In this document: positions 17,766 through 37,541 of the stretch, in pieces | Layout of the letters: every line of letters starts with the position of its first letter | Numbering within the stretch: the stretch's first letter is position 1 | NCBI RefSeq assembly: GCF_044324875.1 | Contig: NZ_CP172185.1 | From: Escherichia coli | GTDB lineage: Bacteria; Pseudomonadota; Gammaproteobacteria; Enterobacterales; Enterobacteriaceae | Reading direction: 5' to 3' (one strand) | Length of the DNA: 64,000 nucleotides | The notes under the pieces: generated by a model | Database searches by the model: none | What the model saw: only the letters and a program-made list of their open reading frames with translations | What the model was told of the DNA's origin: nothing | Program-made: the position numbers and the translations under genes

Positions 17766-18314
17766 ATGAGCAAACAACTCACCGCGCAAGCACCTGTTGA
17801 TCCCATCGTTTTGGGAAAAATGGGTTCGTCTTACGGTATTCGTGGGTGGCTCAGAGTGTTTTCTTCCACCGAAGACGCCGAAAGCATTTTTGACTATCAG
17901 CCCTGGTTTATCCAGAAGGCGGGTCAGTGGCAGCAAGTCCAGCTGGAAAGCTGGAAGCACCACAATCAGGACATGATCATCAAGCTGAAAGGCGTTGACG
18001 ATCGTGATGCGGCGAACCTACTGACGAATTGTGAAATTGTCGTGGATTCATCGCAGCTGCCTCAGCTTGAAGAGGGTGACTACTACTGGAAAGACCTGAT
18101 GGGCTGCCAGGTAGTAACCACTGAAGGCTACGATCTCGGTAAAGTCGTCGATATGATGGAAACCGGATCTAATGATGTTCTCGTCATTAAGGCAAACCTG
18201 AAAGATGCGTTTGGTATCAAGGAACGTCTCGTACCGTTCCTCGATGGGCAGGTTATCAAGAAAGTCGATCTCACTACTCGTTCAATCGAAGTAGATTGGG
18301 ATCCTGGTTTTTAA
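17766..18314 (+). CDS. rimM: Ribosome maturation factor RimM
   Basis: 182 aa starting [10 protein letters not shown]; part of the rpsP-rimM-trmD-rplS operon. Confidence 0.9.
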
Positions 18315-18344
18315 ACCACCGGATAAACGGTAAAAGACGGCGCT

Positions 18345-19112
18345 ATGTGGATTGGCATAATTAGCCTGTTTCCTGAAATGTTCCGCGCAATTACCGATTA
18401 CGGGGTAACTGGCCGGGCAGTTAAAAATGGCCTGCTGAGCATCCAGAGCTGGAGTCCTCGCGACTTCACGCATGACCGGCACCGTACCGTGGACGATCGT
18501 CCTTACGGCGGCGGACCGGGGATGTTAATGATGGTGCAACCTTTGCGGGACGCCATTCATGCAGCAAAAGCCGCGGCGGGTGAAGGCGCAAAGGTGATTT
18601 ATCTGTCACCACAGGGACGCAAGCTTGATCAAGCGGGCGTCAGCGAACTGGCAACGAATCAAAAATTGATTCTGGTGTGCGGTCGCTACGAAGGTATAGA
18701 TGAGCGCGTGATCCAAACCGAAATTGACGAAGAATGGTCAATCGGCGATTACGTTCTCAGTGGTGGTGAGTTACCAGCAATGACGCTGATTGACTCCGTT
18801 TCCCGGTTTATTCCGGGAGTACTGGGACATGAAGCCTCGGCAACGGAAGATTCCTTTGCTGAAGGATTGCTGGATTGCCCGCACTATACGCGGCCTGAGG
18901 TGTTAGAAGGGATGGAAGTTCCGTCAGTGTTACTGTCGGGCAACCATGCCGAGATACGTCGCTGGCGTTTGAAACAGTCGCTGGGCCGTACCTGGCTTAG
19001 AAGACCTGAACTTCTGGAAAACCTGGCTCTGACTGAAGAGCAAGCAAGGTTGCTGGCGGAGTTCAAAACGGAACACGCACAACAGCAACATAAACATGAT
19101 GGGATGGCGTAA
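18345..19112 (+). CDS. trmD: tRNA (guanine37-N1)-methyltransferase TrmD
   Basis: 255-aa [16 protein letters not shown]... Confidence 0.95.
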
Positions 19113-19150
19113 GCCCCCGAGATATCAGTTTACCCAGGATAAGAGATTAA

Positions 19151-19501
<351 letters not shown>

Positions 19502-19530
19502 GGTTTCGCTTAAGCGACATCCTGTTAAGA

Positions 19531-19560
19531 AGGGCTGGCCAATTGGCTGGCCCTTTTTTT
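19531..19560 (+). terminator. Rho-independent terminator of the rpsP-rplS operon
   Basis: GC-rich hairpin GGGCTGGCCAATTGGCTGGCCC followed by a run of 7 T. Confidence 0.6.
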
Positions 19561-19577
19561 ATCTGTTTGCTCGTGTT

Positions 19578-20060
19578 TTAAGGGGTAGTAATCACCACTG
19601 CGACGCGGCGGTTCTCGGCGCGGCCCTGGGCGGTCTTGTTACTGGCTATGGGATATTTTTTTCCTAAACCCTGTGTGGTGAGATTGCTGCGCGGAATTTG
19701 TCCACCCATAGCCCATGCATCGGCCACGACATTCGCCCGTTTCAATGATAAGGCTTCGTTGTAACTGTCTTCACCATAGTTGTCGGTGTGTCCATCCATA
19801 CGGGCATGCGTTAGCCCTGTCGAGGCCAATTTGGCTGCCATGGTTTGGATCTGTTGCTGGCTTTCCGGGAGCAATTTGTAGTCATTTTTTGCGAACAGAA
19901 TGGCATCTGATAAGCCCAACGACCAGTCGCCGGCGGATTCAGTAAATCCATAAGATTGCATAGCGGCGACTTGCTCAGGAGTAAACTTTCCCTGAGGGGA
20001 CTGGCAGCCAGTCAGTATTAGCGAGGTGAAAATCAGGGGTACTACCAGGTGCTTTATCAT
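19578..20060 (-). CDS. yfiB: OmpA-family outer membrane lipoprotein YfiB
   Basis: 160 aa with lipobox ...LTGCQS. Confidence 0.9.
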   Translation of the reverse strand: MIKHLVVPLIFTSLILTGCQSPQGKFTPEQVAAMQSYGFTESAGDWSLGLSDAILFAKNDYKLLPESQQQIQTMAAKLASTGLTHARMDGHTDNYGEDSYNEALSLKRANVVADAWAMGGQIPRSNLTTQGLGKKYPIASNKTAQGRAENRRVAVVITTP

Positions 20061-20075
20061 ATCGATATATCCTTG

Positions 20076-21302
20076 TTATCTCACCAGCTTTTCGGCACGC
20101 TGGTGTTTGGCCTGATACATATTGTGATCGGCCAGCTCTTGTAATTTTTCCGCAGAGGCATGCTCAATGGTCATCGCGTAACCAATGCTTAATGTCATGG
20201 TGGTCTGATGACCATTATGAAGATCAAACGGGCGATTAAAGATTTGTGTCAGTGCTGAGCAAATCCGCTGTACTTCGGATTCCGACTGTACACCAAAGAG
20301 GACCATCGCAAATTCATCGCCGCCTATGCGGTATGCTTTATGTTGCAGCCCGCCAAATTCAGCTAACCGTTTTGCTACCTCAATCAAGACACGATCGCCC
20401 GTCGCATGACCCCAGGTATCATTGATATATTTGAAATTATCGCCATCAAGAAATAGTAACGCCGACGTTTTTCGGGCGTCGGAACTGCTCATCAACGTGT
20501 TGATACCGCTACGAAACGCTGCGCGGTTAGCCAGCCCGGTTAATGGGTCATGTAGCGCGGTACGTAGAAGCTGCGCATTTTTGGCCTGTAAACGAAGCTG
20601 CCACTCTTCCATTTCATCCAGCAGACTGTTGAAGTCGAGTGCGAAGCGGTGAAATTCTGCAATGCGTTCTTCCGAAACTCGTCGGGAAAAATTGCGGTTG
20701 GAACGTACGTCATGCACGACATCGGTGATATTTTTCAATGCTTCCACCAGGCCATTGTGCAAATGGCGGGTGAGGGTAATTGCGATGCCTGATGCCAGCA
20801 GAATGCAGGCGGTCAGGACAGCGAGCGAAAACCAGATAAAATGGCTGATTGAACTGTCGCGAGCGGTTAAGCGTACTTCGCCAATGGTTTCACCATTGTG
20901 ACGAATCGGCTGAATGATGGGGGCAGGGAAGAGCCAGTGGCTTATGAAATTGCTTAAAGTATCGCCTGGATCCTTACGGGTGTAATGCCAGGATGCCAGA
21001 ATATTTTGCTGCTTATCACGTACTTCTGCAGTTGAAAATTGCCCTTGCTGGCCCAGCGCTGCCAGTGTTTCAGTTGCTGCAGGGCCATCGGCAAAAACGA
21101 CAGCTGCTTCCAGACTGTAAGTCATTGTTGCTGCTGTCAGTGCCAGGTTTTTTTGCGCGTACTGTTTCAGGGTCAGCACCGAGGTCACGGAAAGCAGCAA
21201 CCAGATCAGCATCATAGTGATAAATATGCTGGTCATACTGATGTTGCGTAATGCTCTTTTAAACGTGGGGCGCTTATTAAGAGAATTATCGTTATCCATC
21301 AT
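20076..21302 (-). CDS. dgcN: Diguanylate cyclase DgcN (YfiN): periplasmic sensor, HAMP, GGDEF
   Basis: 408 aa; GGDEF signature RIGGDEF present. Confidence 0.9.
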
Positions 21303-21810
21303 TTTTCTTCCGTGCGAGCATCAAGACATCCGGGTTGACCTTTACACCGCTACGCGATAAGGCATCCAGGTTTACGGCAAATCTGACGTCATTATTGTGG
21401 ATGATCAGACAAAAGGCGCTACCAATAATGCACTCGGTATTTTGTTCGGCAATTAATAATAACGCCTTTGACGGATATTGTTCGGTTAATTCCATCTGGA
21501 ATGTCGGTGACTCGTTGCCAAAATAAAAACCATTGCAGCCTGAAATCATCGCCTCTTGTTGAGTGTGAATGATGACAGGCAAATAAGGCAAAGATGTCGC
21601 GGCATTCTCTTGTAGGGCGGTACTAAAACGTGAAGATGAAAAGATACATAACTTTGGTGGCCCTGATAGCGCAGGCCAGCGGGTGTAACTGACAATACCG
21701 GAAACCATCATACGCACGTTTTTCGCAACGTCAGAAGGCTCCTGAGCGAGTATTGGTGCTCCCGTCAGCAGGAGAATCAGCAGTAAGAACAGTCGGTGAG
21801 AAAAACGCAT
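21292..21810 (-). CDS. yfiR: Periplasmic repressor YfiR of DgcN
   Basis: 172 aa with signal peptide; overlaps the dgcN start by 11 nt. Confidence 0.88.
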
Positions 21811-21956
21811 TCAGGGATCCTCACCATCTTCGCTCGAAATGCATCGATATTTTTTCAGAATGCTCATTAAAATATCATCCTTTCATGCGGTCGTCATCAA
21901 TGTGAGAAATAAAACATAATGAGTAAAATCTCATGCTTAATTTATTTGGGGGGTAA

Positions 21957-22322
21957 TTAATTTAATCGTATTGTGCTGGCATTTTCATCAGCCCCTTTTC
22001 GCCATACTTCATGCAGTTGGCTGGCATTTTCAACATTATTGCAGCTGGCAGGAAAGCTTTTACCAGAAAGTCCTCGGGCATAAGTAAAATCGGTCTGGCA
22101 AGTTTTCTTTTGTCCTTCGGCATATCCTTTAAGGTATAGACCGCGATCCGCCTGTGAATCGCTAAATGCATCGTCATCTTTTATGGCGCTGCCCGATATC
22201 GCATCTTCCATACCGACATCATACCAGTCGGTGCTGGTCAAGGTTGGCGCGTGAGTATAAGGATCAATCTGACATCCGCTAACCAGTAAAGCCAACAAGG
22301 GGGCGATAAACTTTTTCATCAT
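21957..22322 (-). CDS. yfiL: Lipoprotein YfiL
   Basis: 121 aa starting MMKKFIAPLLALLVSGCQ. The ORF track start at 22340 is an upstream extension. Confidence 0.8.
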   Translation of the reverse strand: MMKKFIAPLLALLVSGCQIDPYTHAPTLTSTDWYDVGMEDAISGSAIKDDDAFSDSQADRGLYLKGYAEGQKKTCQTDFTYARGLSGKSFPASCNNVENASQLHEVWRKGADENASTIRLN

Positions 22323-22359
22323 TTCTTTCTCCTTTTTCAAAGCATAGCGGATTGTTTTT

Positions 22360-22440
22360 AAAGGAGGTGTAAATTTATTTGTACGAAATAAGCATCAAAA
22401 GCGCGAGTAAATTGTTCCTGTAAAGAAAAATGTACGAAAT
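22360..22440 (+). promoter_or_regulatory. aroF promoter region with TyrR-box-like palindromes
   Basis: TGTAAATTTATTTGTACA and TGTAAAGAAAAATGTACG resemble the TyrR box TGTAAA-N6-TTTACA; aroF is TyrR-repressed in E. coli. Confidence 0.45.
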
Positions 22441-22530
22441 ATGGATTGAAAACTTTACTTTATGTGTTATCGTTACGTCATCCTCGCTGAGGATCAACTA
22501 TCGCAAACGAGCATAAACAGGATCGCCATC

Positions 22531-23601
22531 ATGCAAAAAGACGCGCTGAATAACGTACATATTACCGACGAACAGGTTTTAATGACTCCGGAACAACTGA
22601 AGGCCGCTTTTCCATTGAGCCTGCAACAAGAAGCCCAGATTGCTGACTCGCGTAAAACCATTTCAGATATTATCGCCGGGCGCGATCCTCGTCTGCTGGT
22701 AGTATGTGGTCCTTGTTCCATTCATGATCCGGAAACTGCTCTGGAATATGCTCGTCGATTTAAAGCCCTTGCCGCAGAGGTCAGCGATAGCCTCTATCTG
22801 GTAATGCGCGTCTATTTTGAAAAACCCCGTACCACTGTCGGCTGGAAAGGGTTAATTAACGATCCCCATATGGATGGCTCTTTTGATGTAGAAGCCGGGC
22901 TGCAGATCGCGCGTAAATTGCTGCTTGAGCTGGTGAATATGGGACTGCCACTGGCGACGGAAGCGTTAGATCCAAATAGCCCGCAATACCTGGGCGATCT
23001 GTTTAGCTGGTCAGCAATTGGTGCTCGTACAACGGAATCGCAAACTCACCGTGAAATGGCCTCCGGGCTTTCCATGCCGGTTGGTTTTAAAAACGGCACC
23101 GACGGCAGCCTTGCAACGGCAATTAACGCTATGCGCGCCGCCGCCCAGCCGCACCGTTTTGTTGGCATTAACCAGGCAGGTCAGGTTGCGTTGCTACAAA
23201 CTCAGGGGAATCCGGACGGACATGTGATCCTGCGCGGTGGTAAAGCGCCGAACTATAGCCCTGCGGATGTTGCGCAATGTGAAAAAGAGATGGAACAGGC
23301 GGGACTGCGCCCGTCTCTGATGGTAGATTGCAGCCACGGTAATTCCAATAAAGATTATCGCCGTCAGCCTGCGGTGGCAGAATCCGTGGTTGCTCAAATC
23401 AAAGATGGTAATCGCTCCATTATTGGTCTGATGATTGAAAGTAATATCCACGAAGGTAATCAGTCTTCCGAACAGCCGCGTAGCGAAATGAAATACGGCG
23501 TGTCTGTAACCGATGCCTGCATTAGCTGGGAAATGACCGATGCCTTACTGCGTGAGATCCATCATGATCTCAACGGGCAGCTGACGGCTCGCGTGGCTTA
23601 A
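22531..23601 (+). CDS. aroF: DAHP synthase, Tyr-sensitive
   Basis: 356 aa starting [24 protein letters not shown]. The ORF track start at 22462 is an upstream extension. Confidence 0.95.
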
Positions 23602-25936: not shown

Positions 25937-25959
25937 AGTGTTGCCTTTTTTGTTATCAA

Positions 25960-25990
25960 TAAAAAAGGCCCCCCGATTTGGGAGGCCTTA
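25960..25990 (-). terminator. pheA attenuator terminator hairpin
   Basis: On the minus strand: AAGGCCTCCCAAATCGGGGGGCCTTTTTTATTG, a GC-rich stem followed by a U-tract, between pheL and pheA. Confidence 0.6.
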
Positions 25991-26035
25991 TTGTTCGTCT
26001 TCGCATTCTGTTTCACACGACGAAACGCCTCCCAT

Positions 26036-26083
26036 TCAGGGGAAGGTAAAAAAGAATGCGAAGAAAAACGGTGTGTGTTTCAT
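26036..26083 (-). CDS. pheL: phe operon leader peptide (15 aa, 7 Phe)
   Basis: Minus strand ATGAAACACACACCGTTTTTCTTCGCATTCTTTTTTACCTTCCCCTGA encodes [15 protein letters not shown]. Under 60 aa, so absent from the ORF track. Confidence 0.85.
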   Translation of the reverse strand: [15 protein letters not shown]

Positions 26084-26186
26084 GTTTGTTTCCTTAAGTG
26101 ACTTTAGTACAGTACCCGTACTGTTTTCACGCTGTCAACAAAAAACGCGCCCGAAGGCGCGTTGGCGATACACTCAATATAAAGGA

Positions 26187-29379: not shown

Positions 29380-29441
29380 CCTAAAGAATCAAGACGATCC
29401 GGTACGCGTGATTTTCTTTTCACATTAATCTGGTCAATAAC

Positions 29442-29470
29442 CTTGAATAATTGAGGGATGACCTCATTTA
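29442..29470 (+). promoter_or_regulatory. Putative sigma-32 promoter of clpB
   Basis: CTTGAAT at 29442-29448 and CCTCATTTA at 29462-29470, about 40 nt upstream of the clpB ATG. Confidence 0.5.
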
Positions 29471-29508
29471 ATCTCCAGTAGCAACTTTGATCCGTTATGG
29501 GAGGAGTT

Positions 29509-32082
29509 ATGCGTCTGGATCGTCTTACTAATAAATTCCAGCTTGCTCTTGCCGATGCCCAATCACTTGCACTCGGGCACGACAACCAATTCATCGAACC
29601 ACTTCATTTAATGAGCGCCCTGCTGAATCAGGAAGGGGGTTCGGTTAGTCCTTTATTAACATCCGCTGGCATAAATGCTGGCCAGTTGCGCACAGATATC
29701 AATCAGGCATTAAATCGTTTACCGCAGGTTGAAGGTACTGGTGGTGATGTCCAGCCATCACAAGATCTGGTGCGCGTTCTTAATCTTTGCGACAAGCTGG
29801 CGCAAAAACGTGGTGATAACTTTATCTCGTCAGAACTGTTCGTTCTGGCGGCACTTGAGTCTCGCGGCACGCTGGCCGACATCCTGAAAGCAGCAGGGGC
29901 GACCACCGCCAACATTACTCAAGCGATTGAACAAATGCGTGGAGGTGAAAGCGTGAACGATCAAGGTGCTGAAGACCAACGTCAGGCTTTGAAAAAATAT
30001 ACCATCGACCTTACCGAACGAGCCGAACAGGGTAAACTCGATCCGGTGATTGGTCGTGATGAAGAAATTCGCCGTACCATTCAGGTGCTGCAACGTCGTA
30101 CTAAAAATAACCCGGTACTGATTGGTGAACCAGGCGTCGGTAAAACTGCCATCGTTGAAGGTCTGGCGCAGCGTATCATCAACGGCGAAGTGCCGGAAGG
30201 GTTGAAAGGCCGCCGCGTACTGGCGCTGGATATGGGCGCGCTGGTGGCTGGGGCGAAATATCGCGGTGAGTTTGAAGAACGTTTAAAAGGCGTACTTAAC
30301 GATCTTGCTAAACAGGAAGGCAACGTCATCCTGTTTATCGACGAATTACATACCATGGTCGGCGCGGGTAAAGCAGATGGCGCAATGGACGCCGGAAACA
30401 TGCTGAAACCGGCGCTGGCGCGTGGTGAATTGCACTGCGTAGGTGCCACGACGCTTGACGAATATCGCCAGTACATCGAAAAAGATGCTGCGCTGGAACG
30501 TCGTTTCCAGAAAGTGTTTGTTGCCGAGCCTTCTGTTGAAGATACCATTGCGATTCTGCGTGGCCTGAAAGAACGTTACGAGCTGCACCACCATGTGCAA
30601 ATTACTGACCCGGCAATTGTTGCAGCGGCGACGTTGTCACATCGCTACATTGCTGACCGTCAGCTGCCGGATAAAGCCATCGACCTGATCGATGAAGCAG
30701 CATCCAGCATTCGTATGCAGATTGACTCAAAACCAGAAGAACTCGACCGACTCGATCGCCGTATCATCCAGCTCAAACTGGAACAACAGGCGTTAATGAA
30801 AGAGTCTGATGAAGCCAGTAAAAAACGTCTGGATATGCTCAACGAAGAACTGAGCGACAAAGAACGTCAGTACTCTGAGTTAGAAGAAGAGTGGAAAGCA
30901 GAGAAGGCATCGCTTTCTGGTACGCAGACCATTAAAGCGGAACTGGAACAGGCGAAAATCGCTATTGAACAGGCTCGCCGTGTGGGGGACCTGGCGCGGA
31001 TGTCTGAACTGCAATACGGCAAAATCCCGGAACTGGAAAAGCAACTGGAAGCCGCAACGCAGCTCGAAGGCAAAACTATGCGTCTGTTGCGTAATAAAGT
31101 GACCGACGCCGAAATTGCTGAAGTGCTGGCGCGTTGGACGGGGATTCCGGTTTCTCGCATGATGGAAAGCGAGCGCGAAAAACTGCTGCGTATGGAGCAA
31201 GAGCTGCACCATCGCGTTATTGGTCAGAACGAAGCGGTTGATGCGGTATCTAACGCTATTCGTCGTAGCCGCGCAGGGCTTGCTGACCCGAATCGCCCGA
31301 TTGGTTCATTCCTGTTCCTCGGCCCAACGGGTGTGGGGAAAACTGAGCTTTGTAAGGCGCTGGCGAACTTTATGTTTGATAGCGACGAGGCGATGGTCCG
31401 TATCGATATGTCCGAGTTTATGGAGAAACACTCGGTGTCTCGTCTGGTTGGTGCGCCTCCGGGATATGTCGGTTATGAAGAAGGTGGCTACCTGACCGAA
31501 GCGGTGCGTCGTCGTCCGTATTCCGTCATCCTGCTGGATGAAGTGGAAAAAGCGCATCCGGATGTCTTCAACATTCTGTTGCAGGTACTGGATGATGGGC
31601 GTCTGACTGACGGGCAGGGGAGAACGGTCGACTTCCGTAATACGGTTGTCATTATGACCTCTAACCTCGGTTCCGATTTGATTCAGGAACGCTTCGGTGA
31701 ACTGGATTATGCGCACATGAAAGAGCTGGTGCTCGGTGTGGTAAGCCATAACTTCCGTCCGGAATTCATTAACCGTATCGATGAAGTGGTGGTCTTCCAT
31801 CCGCTGGGTGAACAGCACATTGCGTCGATTGCGCAGATTCAGTTGAAACGTCTGTACAAACGTCTGGAAGAACGTGGTTATGAAATCCACATTTCTGACG
31901 AGGCGCTGAAACTGCTGAGCGAGAACGGTTACGATCCGGTCTATGGTGCACGTCCTCTGAAACGTGCTATCCAGCAGCAGATCGAAAACCCGCTGGCACA
32001 GCAAATACTGTCTGGTGAATTGGTTCCGGGTAAAGTTATTCGCCTGGAAGTTAATGAAGACCGGATTGTCGCCGTCCAGTAA
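29509..32082 (+). CDS. clpB: Chaperone ClpB (Hsp100 disaggregase)
   Basis: 857 aa starting [18 protein letters not shown]; two AAA+ modules ([18 protein letters not shown]). The ORF track start at 29497 is 4 codons upstream. Confidence 0.95.
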
Positions 32083-32522: not shown

Positions 32523-34064
<1,542 letters not shown>

Positions 34065-34149
34065 CCTTAAAGAAGCGTACTTTGCAGTGCTCACACAGAT
34101 TGTCTGATAGAAAGTGAAAAGCAAGGCGTCTTGCGAAGCAGACTGATAC

Positions 34150-34225
34150 GTCCCCTTCGTCTAGAGGCCCAGGACACCGCCCTTTCACGGCGGTAACAGG
34201 GGTTCGAATCCCCTAGGGGACGCCA
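34150..34225 (+). tRNA. gltW: tRNA-Glu (UUC) in the 16S-23S spacer
   Basis: GTCCCCTTCGTCTAGAGGCCCAGGACACCGCCCTTTCACGGCGGTAACAGGGGTTCGAATCCCCTAGGGGACGCCA, 76 nt. Confidence 0.95.
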
Positions 34226-34418
34226 CTTGCTGGTTTGTGAGTGAAAGTCGCCGACCTCAATATCTCAAAACAGACTGTTAAGTCTTGTTTGAGATATTTG
34301 CTCTTTAAAAATCTGGATCAAGCTGAAAATTGAAACACTGAACAACGAAAGTTGTTCGTGAGTCTCTCAAATTTTCGCAACACGATGATGAATCGAAAGA
34401 AACATCTTCGGGTTGTGA

Positions 34419-37323
<2,905 letters not shown>

Positions 37324-37422
37324 ACAACGCCGAAGATGTTTTGGCGGATGAGAGAAAGATTTTCAGCCTGATACAGATTAAATCGACAGGTCATAACGAG
37401 ACGTGTTGATAAAACAGAATTT

Positions 37423-37541
37423 GCCTGGCGGCCGTAGCGCGGTGGTCCCACCTGACCCCATGCCGAACTCAGAAGTGAAACGCCGTAGCGCCGATGGTAG
37501 TGTGGGGTCTCCCCATGCGAGAGTAGGGAACTGCCAGGCAT
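37423..37541 (+). rRNA. rrfG: 5S ribosomal RNA
   Basis: TGCCTGGCGGCCGTAGCGCGGTGGTCCCACCTGACCCCATGCCGAACTCAG...CTGCCAGGCAT. Confidence 0.9.

Follow-up and report, generated by a model that had tools for sequence, protein, structure and literature searches.

The DNA analyzed here (the window) is a stretch of 64,000 nucleotides from Escherichia coli, on the minus strand of which the ORFs of yfiR, dgcN (also named yfiN), and yfiB are close neighbors with one orientation and with the gene order seen in RefSeq genomes (Table 1). The gene neighborhood, which reads rplS / yfiB-dgcN-yfiR / yfiL / aroF, is canonical for E. coli, and the RefSeq annotation of 8 E. coli genomes gives the same ORF lengths, the same 11-nt overlap, and the same 15-nt gap. 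Each of the three ORFs has one terminal stop and no internal stops. An earlier note on this DNA had claimed that all three are undamaged and had proposed an alignment to reference as a check. The frameshift or premature stop to be looked for was not found when the ORFs were compared codon by codon, without gaps, with two RefSeq genomes (0 frameshifts and 0 premature stops in yfiR, dgcN, and yfiB against the K-12–like genome), and the claim stands, with limits exact to the base. The ORFs are not chance occurrences because the Pfam E-values are as low as 2e-42 (DUF4154, 5e-31; GGDEF, 2e-42; CHASE8, 7e-34; OmpA, 8e-18). The yfi locus was present at ≥80% query coverage in 5371 of the 5426 complete E. 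coli genomes (~99%), and an intact locus is therefore the ordinary, default state. Rare strains with an IS1-associated deletion of the locus exist, and it is only against these or Shigella flexneri that intactness is notable. The window being from Shigella was ruled out by the exact DgcN sequence, which sits in E. coli records, and by 6 kb that are 100% identical to the E. coli contig GCA_044683685.

Table 1. Features of the yfiR-dgcN-yfiB locus in the window, with the basis of each assignment.
Feature	Position	Strand	Description	Basis
yfiR	21292..21810	-	172 aa; periplasmic repressor of DgcN	ORF, Pfam, NCBIfam
dgcN (yfiN)	20076..21302	-	408 aa; inner-membrane diguanylate cyclase	ORF, Pfam, NCBIfam
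yfiB	19578..20060	-	160 aa; outer-membrane OmpA/Pal-like lipoprotein	ORF, Pfam, NCBIfam
yfiR stop / dgcN start overlap	21292..21302	-		sequence, RefSeq annotation
dgcN-yfiB spacer	20061..20075	-	15 nt	sequence
GC-rich hairpin, rplS/yfiB convergent gap	19527..19558	.		terminator scan
yfiL-yfiR intergenic region, presumed operon promoter region	21811..21956	-	146 nt	promoter scan, sequence
Divergent dgcN haplotype tract	20133..20955	-	codons ~116-390	difference list, pairwise matrices

The identities given to the three proteins in the earlier note were borne out, as the NCBIfam equivalog cut-offs were passed, the structures of the Pseudomonas aeruginosa proteins could be aligned, and the context is canonical. 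YfiR matched Pfam PF13689 (DUF4154), a family described by Pfam as "YfiR/HmsC-like," with 108 bits against a threshold of 24.9 (E = 4.9e-31), and it scored 168 bits with NCBIfam NF053586 ("regulatory sequestration protein YfiR"), whose cut-off is 85. It had no amino acid differences from the protein of the K-12–like genome, and an exact-sequence look-up returned YFIR_ECOLI. A plain hydropathy scan, rather than a dedicated signal-peptide predictor, placed an N-terminal hydrophobic signal sequence at residues 3-25, ending in ...GAPILA/QEP. YfiR was aligned with P. aeruginosa YfiR (5y61/4yn7, E = 1e-16), and its cysteines, C55, C92, C127, and C134, were each paired with a cysteine in the 5y61 alignment; the two conserved cysteine pairs are reported to be redox-sensitive disulfides (PMC4992967). 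YfiB matched Pfam OmpA at residues 55-151 (E = 7.7e-18), NCBIfam NF053585 ("outer membrane lipoprotein YfiB") with 232 bits against 128, and NF007424 (PRK09967) with 348 bits against 155, and it carries the lipobox L-T-G-C19. In its alignment with P. aeruginosa YfiB (4zhv, E = 1e-31), F39 and W46 of the activation-helix patch correspond to F48 and W55, and D93 and G96 of the peptidoglycan-binding site correspond to D102 and G105. YfiB differs from the K-12 protein by 3 amino acids, and the exact protein was found on 824 contigs.

DgcN scored 502 bits with the NCBIfam equivalog NF007423 (DgcN/YfiN), which has its cut-off at 325. The TM segments were assigned from two hydrophobic stretches by hydropathy and the domain limits from Pfam, resulting in a layout of TM1 (~20-46), a periplasmic CHASE8 domain (45-146), TM2 (~150-179), a HAMP-like linker (~180-245), and a GGDEF domain (249-403). 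The segment between TM2 and the GGDEF domain has been termed HAMP (PMC4992967). Pfam HAMP was not reported on the 180-245 linker even at E<=10, and residues ~164-243 gave weak NCBIfam matches to the HAMP regions of sensor kinases (E ~2e-4 to 5e-4), such as BaeS at 168-236 (E = 4.6e-4) and PRK15347 at 164-243 (E = 2e-4). Residues 17-232 also matched NF053592 (E = 6e-23), under the cut-off of that model. In the alignment with TpbB (7a7e, which covers HAMP-GGDEF; E = 7e-29), RIGGDEF at residues 325-331 lies opposite RLGGDEF, so that the motif is intact as the earlier note had said, with the refinement that K-12 has RLGGDEF and that Ile326 is a feature of the window allele. The I-site position (318-321) reads GLQH (GLRH in K-12), without an RxxD five residues upstream of GGDEF, and the sole RxxD is at position 357, downstream of GGDEF. 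E. coli YfiN, like most of its homologues, is reported to be without I-sites (PMC10127611). Gene integrity, family membership, diagnostic residues, and synteny are shown by these data for the operon.

The 11-nt overlap between yfiR and dgcN has the sequence ATGATGGATAA, the minus strand reading ...GGAAGAAAAATGATGGATAACG..., and a Shine-Dalgarno–like GGAAG lies upstream of it. Such an overlap between the stop of one gene and the start of the next is typical of translational coupling. Because dgcN opens with ATG-ATG, the second of which is at 21299, its product could also be a 407–amino acid protein with an 8-nt overlap, which we regard as quite possible, though somewhat short of probable. Met2 is invariant in 21 of the 21 aligned DgcN orthologues, whereas Met1 is found only in Escherichia-type sequences; in Citrobacter, Salmonella, and Enterobacter, the orthologues have their first residue at the Met2 position, and a gene caller used the second Met on a related contig (L011), giving an 8-nt overlap. 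On the other hand, RefSeq annotates the first ATG in 8 of the 8 genomes inspected, and GGAAG is located 4-5 nt upstream of the first ATG, a spacing acceptable for both starts. The NCBIfam DgcN model begins at residue 11 and therefore does not discriminate between them. Given the invariant Met2 and the call on the related contig, the length of 11 nt in the earlier note holds for the annotated start and would be shortened to 8 nt with the second.

With regard to the remaining signals, the dgcN-yfiB spacer contains a Shine-Dalgarno–like AAGGA 8 nt 5' of the yfiB ATG. For rplS, on the plus strand, the terminator scan identified the hairpin in the rplS/yfiB gap as a clear intrinsic terminator. On the minus strand its stem is followed only by TTCTTAAC, and therefore its role in ending the yfi transcript is plausible but weak. 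A consensus scan for a promoter upstream of yfiR found no minus-strand sigma-70 match in the yfiL-yfiR intergenic region, although the scan was uninformative, with 7 matches in total against 4.6±2.1 expected. No Rfam match was obtained anywhere in 19400-22400, and a structured RNA or known sRNA in or beside the operon was thus discarded as a candidate.

DgcN differs from the K-12 protein at 11 residues (F116L, G165A, N272S, N273S, I309V, R320Q, L326I, Y336F, D337G, Q346R, and L357R) and from that of strain 2012C-4221 at 1. The ORFs might therefore be intact while the DgcN allele behaves unlike that of K-12, for example by being partly insensitive to YfiR or by having an altered catalytic output, but we consider this very improbable. 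Among the substitutions, G165A in TM2, R320Q in the degenerate I-site, L326I beside GGDEF, and Y336F/D337G/Q346R/L357R in the GGDEF domain could be named as the causes, with equally slight expectation. Such a view could appeal to P. aeruginosa YfiN, in which the TM2 substitutions G162S, A171V, and G173S/D and substitutions in HAMP render the protein YfiR-insensitive and activated (PMC3375315); the likeness of G165A to G162S and G173S/D lies in the shared TM2 segment. It could also appeal to the ten further changes, 8 of which are in the GGDEF domain, but the same P. aeruginosa screen yielded no activating mutation in that domain (PMC3375315). Moreover, A165 is a standing polymorphism, carried by the E. 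coli strains 7/2 and FDAARGOS_1290. The 101-nt stretch around codon 165, a query that includes four window-specific differences, was matched at 99% identity by 449 complete genomes, the codon itself having been checked in 7/2 and FDAARGOS_1290 only. A165 is also native in the DgcN orthologues of Trabulsiella and Yokenella, and I326, G337, R346, and R357 are the residues that orthologues from related lineages and genera have at these positions. The 120 DgcN homologues listed were essentially all from Enterobacteriaceae, and the PDB entries span only the HAMP-GGDEF part. The exact DgcN protein was, furthermore, found on 184 public E. coli contigs, and the dN/dS of the allele is 0.10. The idea of G165A as a private, possibly activating mutation is unsupported, given that further E. 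coli strains and orthologues from other genera have the same residue.

The nucleotide differences in dgcN are concentrated in a tract of codons ~116-390, which spans the end of CHASE8, TM2, the linker, and most of the GGDEF domain. The tract diverges by 5.6% from K-12, EcN, and O157:H7, against 0-2% in the flanks. The boundary is sharp, with 0 differences from K-12 in codons 1-115 and a dS of 0.19 in codons 116-408. The dN/dS values, 0.10 for dgcN (the same in codons 116-408) and 0.15 for yfiB, together with the lack of any amino acid change in YfiR, indicate purifying selection on the yfi genes, including the dgcN tract. The tract is a rare haplotype, as seen from identity bands over 5425 genomes.

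Pairwise matrices among E. coli revealed at least three haplotype classes in the tract and a divergence of up to 5.6%, compared with 0-2.9% in yfiR, the 5' part of dgcN, and yfiB. The divergence between lineages was alike across the yfi genes (9.5-17.5%), and therefore the excess in the tract is specific to within-species diversity. An import of the tract from the relatives carrying the P0050 and P0051 proteins, whose DgcN is 90% and 88% identical to that of the window, respectively, was rejected, since all E. coli allele classes are equidistant from them (16.2-17.5%). The number of classes, the excess over the neighboring segments, its confinement to diversity within the species, and the sharp breakpoint could all be accommodated by balancing or diversifying selection on distinct output-domain haplotypes, as opposed to neutral recombination. 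We nevertheless hold such selection to be very improbable. The change in the tract is mostly synonymous, the pattern would be explained equally well if the tract had come from a moderately divergent lineage outside the sampling, in E. coli or a cryptic clade, and had then recombined patchily, and the nearest neighbors differ among yfiB, yfiL, and aroF, indicating mosaicism across the locus. It is, likewise, very improbable that selection has preserved the tract as one among several old alleles of the output domain, giving DgcN a set-point or partner interaction other than that of K-12; YfiR sensitivity altered through G165A or FtsZ/ZipA binding might be examples of such an interaction, at similarly long odds.

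Taken together, the region is, with a probability of roughly 0.93, the native yfiR-dgcN-yfiB (YfiBNR) operon of the E. coli chromosome, predicted to function as in E. coli and P. aeruginosa. The proteins for which synthesis by DgcN, repression by YfiR, and relief by YfiB or by reduction have been reported are solely those of K-12 and P. aeruginosa (PMC4992967, PMC3375315), and we infer every biochemical step for the window operon from the literature (PMC4992967, PMC10127611, PMC3375315). In this scheme, YfiR would be exported to the periplasm, fold by means of two disulfide bonds, and bind the periplasmic CHASE8 (PAS-like) domain of inner-membrane DgcN, by which the cyclase would be held inactive. 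Under reducing conditions or upon the loss of DsbA, YfiR would misfold and release DgcN; alternatively, YfiB, anchored to peptidoglycan by its OmpA-like domain, may sequester YfiR upon envelope stress. Upon the release of DgcN, TM2 and the HAMP-like linker would relay the conformational change, and GTP would be converted into c-di-GMP by the GGDEF dimer, probably with no product feedback since DgcN is without an RxxD I-site. The expected output is a decrease in motility and an increase in cellulose and biofilm, and a second envelope-stress signal in E. coli may move DgcN to the Z ring, leading to division arrest. The gene packing (11- or 8-nt overlap and 15-nt spacer) fits an expression in which the repressor and the cyclase are translationally coupled and made in stoichiometric amounts.

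The window strain should thus retain a YfiR-controlled c-di-GMP synthesis that responds to redox and envelope stress, as well as DgcN-mediated division arrest. The confirmation is useful mainly as annotation, as this is a textbook c-di-GMP module, and neither its location nor its condition is unusual. Diversity within the species has a local hotspot in the cytoplasmic half of dgcN, where the mosaic boundaries are sharp. This could interest specialists in c-di-GMP or population geneticists, and because of this diversity the laboratory results obtained with the K-12 allele may not hold exactly for every E. coli lineage.

Among the known systems, HmsCDE of Yersinia pestis is presented in PMC5550408 as a homologous tripartite system, consisting of YfiR-like HmsC, GGDEF protein HmsD, and OmpA-like HmsE; it belongs to a different genus, its output is the Hms biofilm in the flea, and it is likened to the window operon by description. 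The YfiBNR system of P. aeruginosa (YfiB, PA1119; YfiN/TpbB, PA1120; and YfiR, PA1121), for which the mechanism has been modeled (PMC2837407, PMC3375315, PMC4887326, PMC4655355), has the three-component architecture in common with the window. Its proteins are distant orthologues with ~30-45% identity in the aligned parts, and the YfiR cysteines, GGDEF, and the activation-helix and peptidoglycan-binding residues of YfiB are common to both. The downstream outputs are Pel/Psl and small-colony variants in Pseudomonas and, in E. coli, cellulose/curli, YcgR-dependent motility control, and Z-ring arrest (PMC4992967). In Salmonella enterica, whose DgcN orthologue (P0106) is ~75% identical to the window DgcN, repression by YfiR and midcell localization have been reported and yfiB is absent (PMC4992967), whereas the window has yfiB. 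The dgcN of S. flexneri 2457T (S2841), at the same locus and with >97.9% nucleotide identity to K-12 dgcN, is cut short by a stop at codon 120 (PMC11327459), in contrast to the uninterrupted dgcN of the window. The operon of E. coli K-12 (b2603-b2605; YfiR, P64548-type; DgcN, P46139) has the same context, ORF lengths (172, 408, and 160 amino acids), 11-nt overlap, and 15-nt spacer as the window. The identity to K-12 is 100% for YfiR, 97.3% (397/408) for DgcN, in which L326I turns RLGGDEF into RIGGDEF, and 98.1% (157/160) for YfiB, which carries A7V, V10I, and G103A. Each exact protein sequence is present in public E. coli records, and the YfiBNR operon in the window is an already known system, as the earlier note had recognized.

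The minus-strand operon of yfiR, dgcN (yfiN) and yfiB consists of three consecutive open reading frames (ORFs), each with one stop, which is terminal, and the limits previously assigned to them proved exact. Their undamaged state, as the earlier note had claimed, was borne out by these single stops and by a comparison with a K-12-like genome, in which no indels were found in yfiR, dgcN or yfiB and the window differed by 3 nucleotides and no amino acid in yfiR, by 9 nucleotides and 3 amino acids (A7V, V10I and G103A) in yfiB, and by 46 nucleotides and 11 amino acids in dgcN. The yfiR stop codon and the annotated dgcN start have 11 nt in common, the overlap being read on the minus strand as GGAAGAAAA-ATGATGGATAA with a Shine-Dalgarno-like element, GGAAG, and dgcN is separated from yfiB by a 15-nt gap that contains AAGGA. 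The reported overlap of 11 nt thus holds with the annotated first ATG; however, dgcN opens with ATG-ATG, and, because, of the two Met residues, the second alone is invariant in the cross-genus orthologue alignment and the second ATG was chosen by the gene caller on one related contig, the true overlap may be 8 nt. Either overlap suggests translational coupling of yfiR and dgcN.

Features of the yfi locus and of the rest of the window
Feature	Position	Strand	Length	Basis or remark
DUF5507/DUF5508 protein	607-2061			near ssrA
AIDA/pertactin-type autotransporter adhesin ORF	2866-7569		1567 aa	GTG start
ssrA (tmRNA)	7730-8092			
Hairpin	19527-19558			predicted terminator
yfiB	19578-20060	minus	160 aa	ORF list and raw sequence
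dgcN	20076-21302	minus	408 aa	ORF list and raw sequence
Divergent dgcN tract	20133-20955		823 bp	codons about 116-390
yfiR	21292-21810	minus	172 aa	ORF list and raw sequence
yfiL, mechanical ORF	21957-22340		127 aa	TTG start; RefSeq start 22322, 121 aa
yfiL-aroF intergenic difference cluster	22349-22425		77 bp	
TyrR-box-like site	22368-22385			
TyrR-box-like site	22419-22436			
aroF, mechanical ORF	22462-23601		379 aa	RefSeq start 22531, 356 aa
Phe leader	25959-26084			Rfam
RyfD	29390-29528			Rfam
Complete rrn operon with tRNA-Glu and StyR-44	32523-37539			Rfam
AsrC (antisense to rseC)	55619-56450			Rfam
rncO	59234-59448			Rfam
OhsC antitoxin sRNA	62860-62936			Rfam

The assignment to a YfiBNR module was upheld, as all three products exceeded the curated cut-offs of their NCBIfam equivalogs (YfiR, 168 bits against 85; DgcN/YfiN, 502 against 325; YfiB, 232 against 128, and 348 against 155 for PRK09967) and carried the diagnostic features of their families, the HAMP profile excepted. 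The Pfam domains were DUF4154 (YfiR/HmsC-like) in YfiR, CHASE8 and GGDEF in DgcN, and OmpA in YfiB, and all three aligned with the solved Pseudomonas aeruginosa proteins (YfiR, E=1e-16; TpbB, the YfiN of that species, E=7e-29; YfiB, E=1e-31). YfiR has a predicted hydrophobic export signal at its N-terminus and four cysteines (C55, C92, C127 and C134), each aligned opposite a P. aeruginosa cysteine. In DgcN, CHASE8 lies between two transmembrane stretches, the GGDEF site is intact, and the RxxD I-site is absent, with GLQH at its position; Pfam HAMP was not reported even at E<=10, and residues about 164-243 gave weak NCBIfam matches to sensor-kinase HAMP regions. YfiB has the lipobox LTG-C19 and counterparts of P. 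aeruginosa F48/W55 in the activation helix and of D102/G105 in peptidoglycan binding.

When a 2.6-kb query across the locus was compared with 5426 complete E. coli genomes, 5425 were matched, 5371 with a query coverage of at least 80%, always on the chromosome and annotated as yfiB, dgcN and yfiR. In all eight genomes inspected in detail the gene lengths and the 11-nt overlap were identical, and the locus lay between rimM-trmD-rplS and yfiL-aroF-tyrA. Public E. coli records also contain the exact proteins (DgcN on 184 contigs, YfiB on 824 and YfiR on at least 1000), and over the 6-kb neighbourhood the window is matched at 100% identity by a contig of the draft E. coli assembly GCA_044683685. 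Therefore, an undamaged yfi locus is the norm in E. coli: the system is already known, its intactness is the default of the species, and the observation of the earlier note is confirmed and its interpretation supported. Damaged loci are represented by strain SW07163, in which an IS1-mediated deletion has removed most of dgcN together with the 3' end of yfiR, and by S. flexneri, in which dgcN codon 120 is a premature stop (PMC11327459).

RIGGDEF, reported earlier as intact, is present at DgcN residues 325-331. The K-12 motif is RLGGDEF; the Ile is a feature of the window allele, which shares it with strains 042, AF39 and 2012C-4221 and with the DgcN proteins of two more divergent relatives (P0050 and P0051). 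This change from Leu to Ile is conservative and does not touch the catalytic GGDEF residues. The substitution G165A in TM2 was singled out because YfiN of P. aeruginosa is activated by substitutions of TM2 glycines (PMC3375315). G165A is a recurrent natural variant in E. coli, and Ala is native in the Trabulsiella and Yokenella orthologues.

All 46 nucleotide differences of dgcN from K-12 fall in codons 116-390, with none in codons 1-115, and yfiR differs by 0.6%. The resulting tract (dS 0.19, dN/dS 0.10) has a sharp boundary and is 5.6% diverged from K-12, E. coli Nissle and O157:H7. Of the 5425 genomes, 4371 (K-12, BL21, Nissle and O157:H7 among them) had a tract 90-95% identical to it, 1053 had one that was 95-99% identical, and a single genome, strain 2012C-4221, had one of at least 99% identity. 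Among ten sequences, the tract fell into three or more haplotype classes that differ by 3-5.6%; in these comparisons the differences were 0-2.9% in yfiR, the 5' part of dgcN and yfiB. Which strain is closest to the window differs by segment (7/2 for rimM-rplS, AF39 for yfiB, 2012C-4221 for the tract and FDAARGOS_1290 for yfiL), a classic recombination mosaic. Import of the tract from the two divergent relatives retrieved was rejected, because each of them is equally distant from all E. coli classes (16.2-17.5%). Since this import was rejected and G165A is recurrent and native elsewhere, the tract was treated as an ordinary, selectively constrained polymorphism, with a small residual chance of a functional difference between haplotypes. 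Separately, three DgcN-like proteins from short metagenome/Logan contigs (P0053, P0055 and P0058) combine an E. coli-identical N-terminal half with an Enterobacter-like GGDEF half; they probably arose by chimeric assembly, although they could be genuine recombinants between genera.

Around the operon, the hairpin is predicted to be a clear terminator for convergent rplS and to act only weakly on the yfi transcript; at 19554, in the T-run of its tail, the window has one T more than other E. coli. A promoter scan of the 146-nt yfiL-yfiR spacer gave no convincing sigma-70 promoter, and relative to other E. coli the spacer has a 3-bp deletion at about 21953, 4 nt past the end of yfiL. The yfiL-aroF cluster comprises about 20 differences from K-12, most of them common to 2012C-4221, and overlaps two TyrR-box-like sites (TGTAAAN6TTTACA, 2 mismatches); the aroF regulatory region may be an allele other than that of K-12. 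The upstream extensions of the mechanical yfiL and aroF ORFs are artefacts of ORF listing. Two loci of more divergent relatives (L011 and L012) differed from the window (17900-23500) by 9.5-17.5% in the yfi genes and yfiL, about 7-8% in aroF and only about 1.6-1.8% in rimM-trmD-rplS, and the yfi locus evolves much faster than its housekeeping neighbours.

No Rfam family matched inside or beside the operon, and all matches elsewhere in the window, at the gathering threshold, are expected for this chromosomal region. The adhesin ORF and the DUF5507/DUF5508 protein directly flank ssrA, the site of the CP4-57 prophage in K-12; no integrase-size ORF was found between them, and CP4-57 seems to be absent. 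As the identity to the 5426 complete RefSeq genomes (tested on 38000-60000 and 19400-22000) was at most 99.0% over 22 kb, with strains 135, 042 and relatives as the best matches, the collection contains no complete genome close to this lineage.

With respect to known systems, periplasmic YfiR represses YfiN, to whose PAS-like/CHASE8 domain it binds, YfiN is released when the YfiR disulfides are broken by reducing conditions or loss of DsbA, YfiR is sequestered at the outer membrane by the lipoprotein YfiB in P. aeruginosa, and activation reaches the GGDEF dimer by way of the TM and HAMP segments (PMC3375315; PMC4992967). Because E. coli YfiN has neither I-site, c-di-GMP synthesis is not feedback-limited and can deplete GTP (PMC10127611); upon a second, envelope-stress signal this YfiN moves via FtsZ and ZipA to the Z ring, where it blocks division (PMC4992967). 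The dN/dS values against K-12 were 0.10 for dgcN and 0.15 for yfiB, with yfiR free of amino-acid change. By all that sequence can show, the window is consistent with an operational YfiBNR system.
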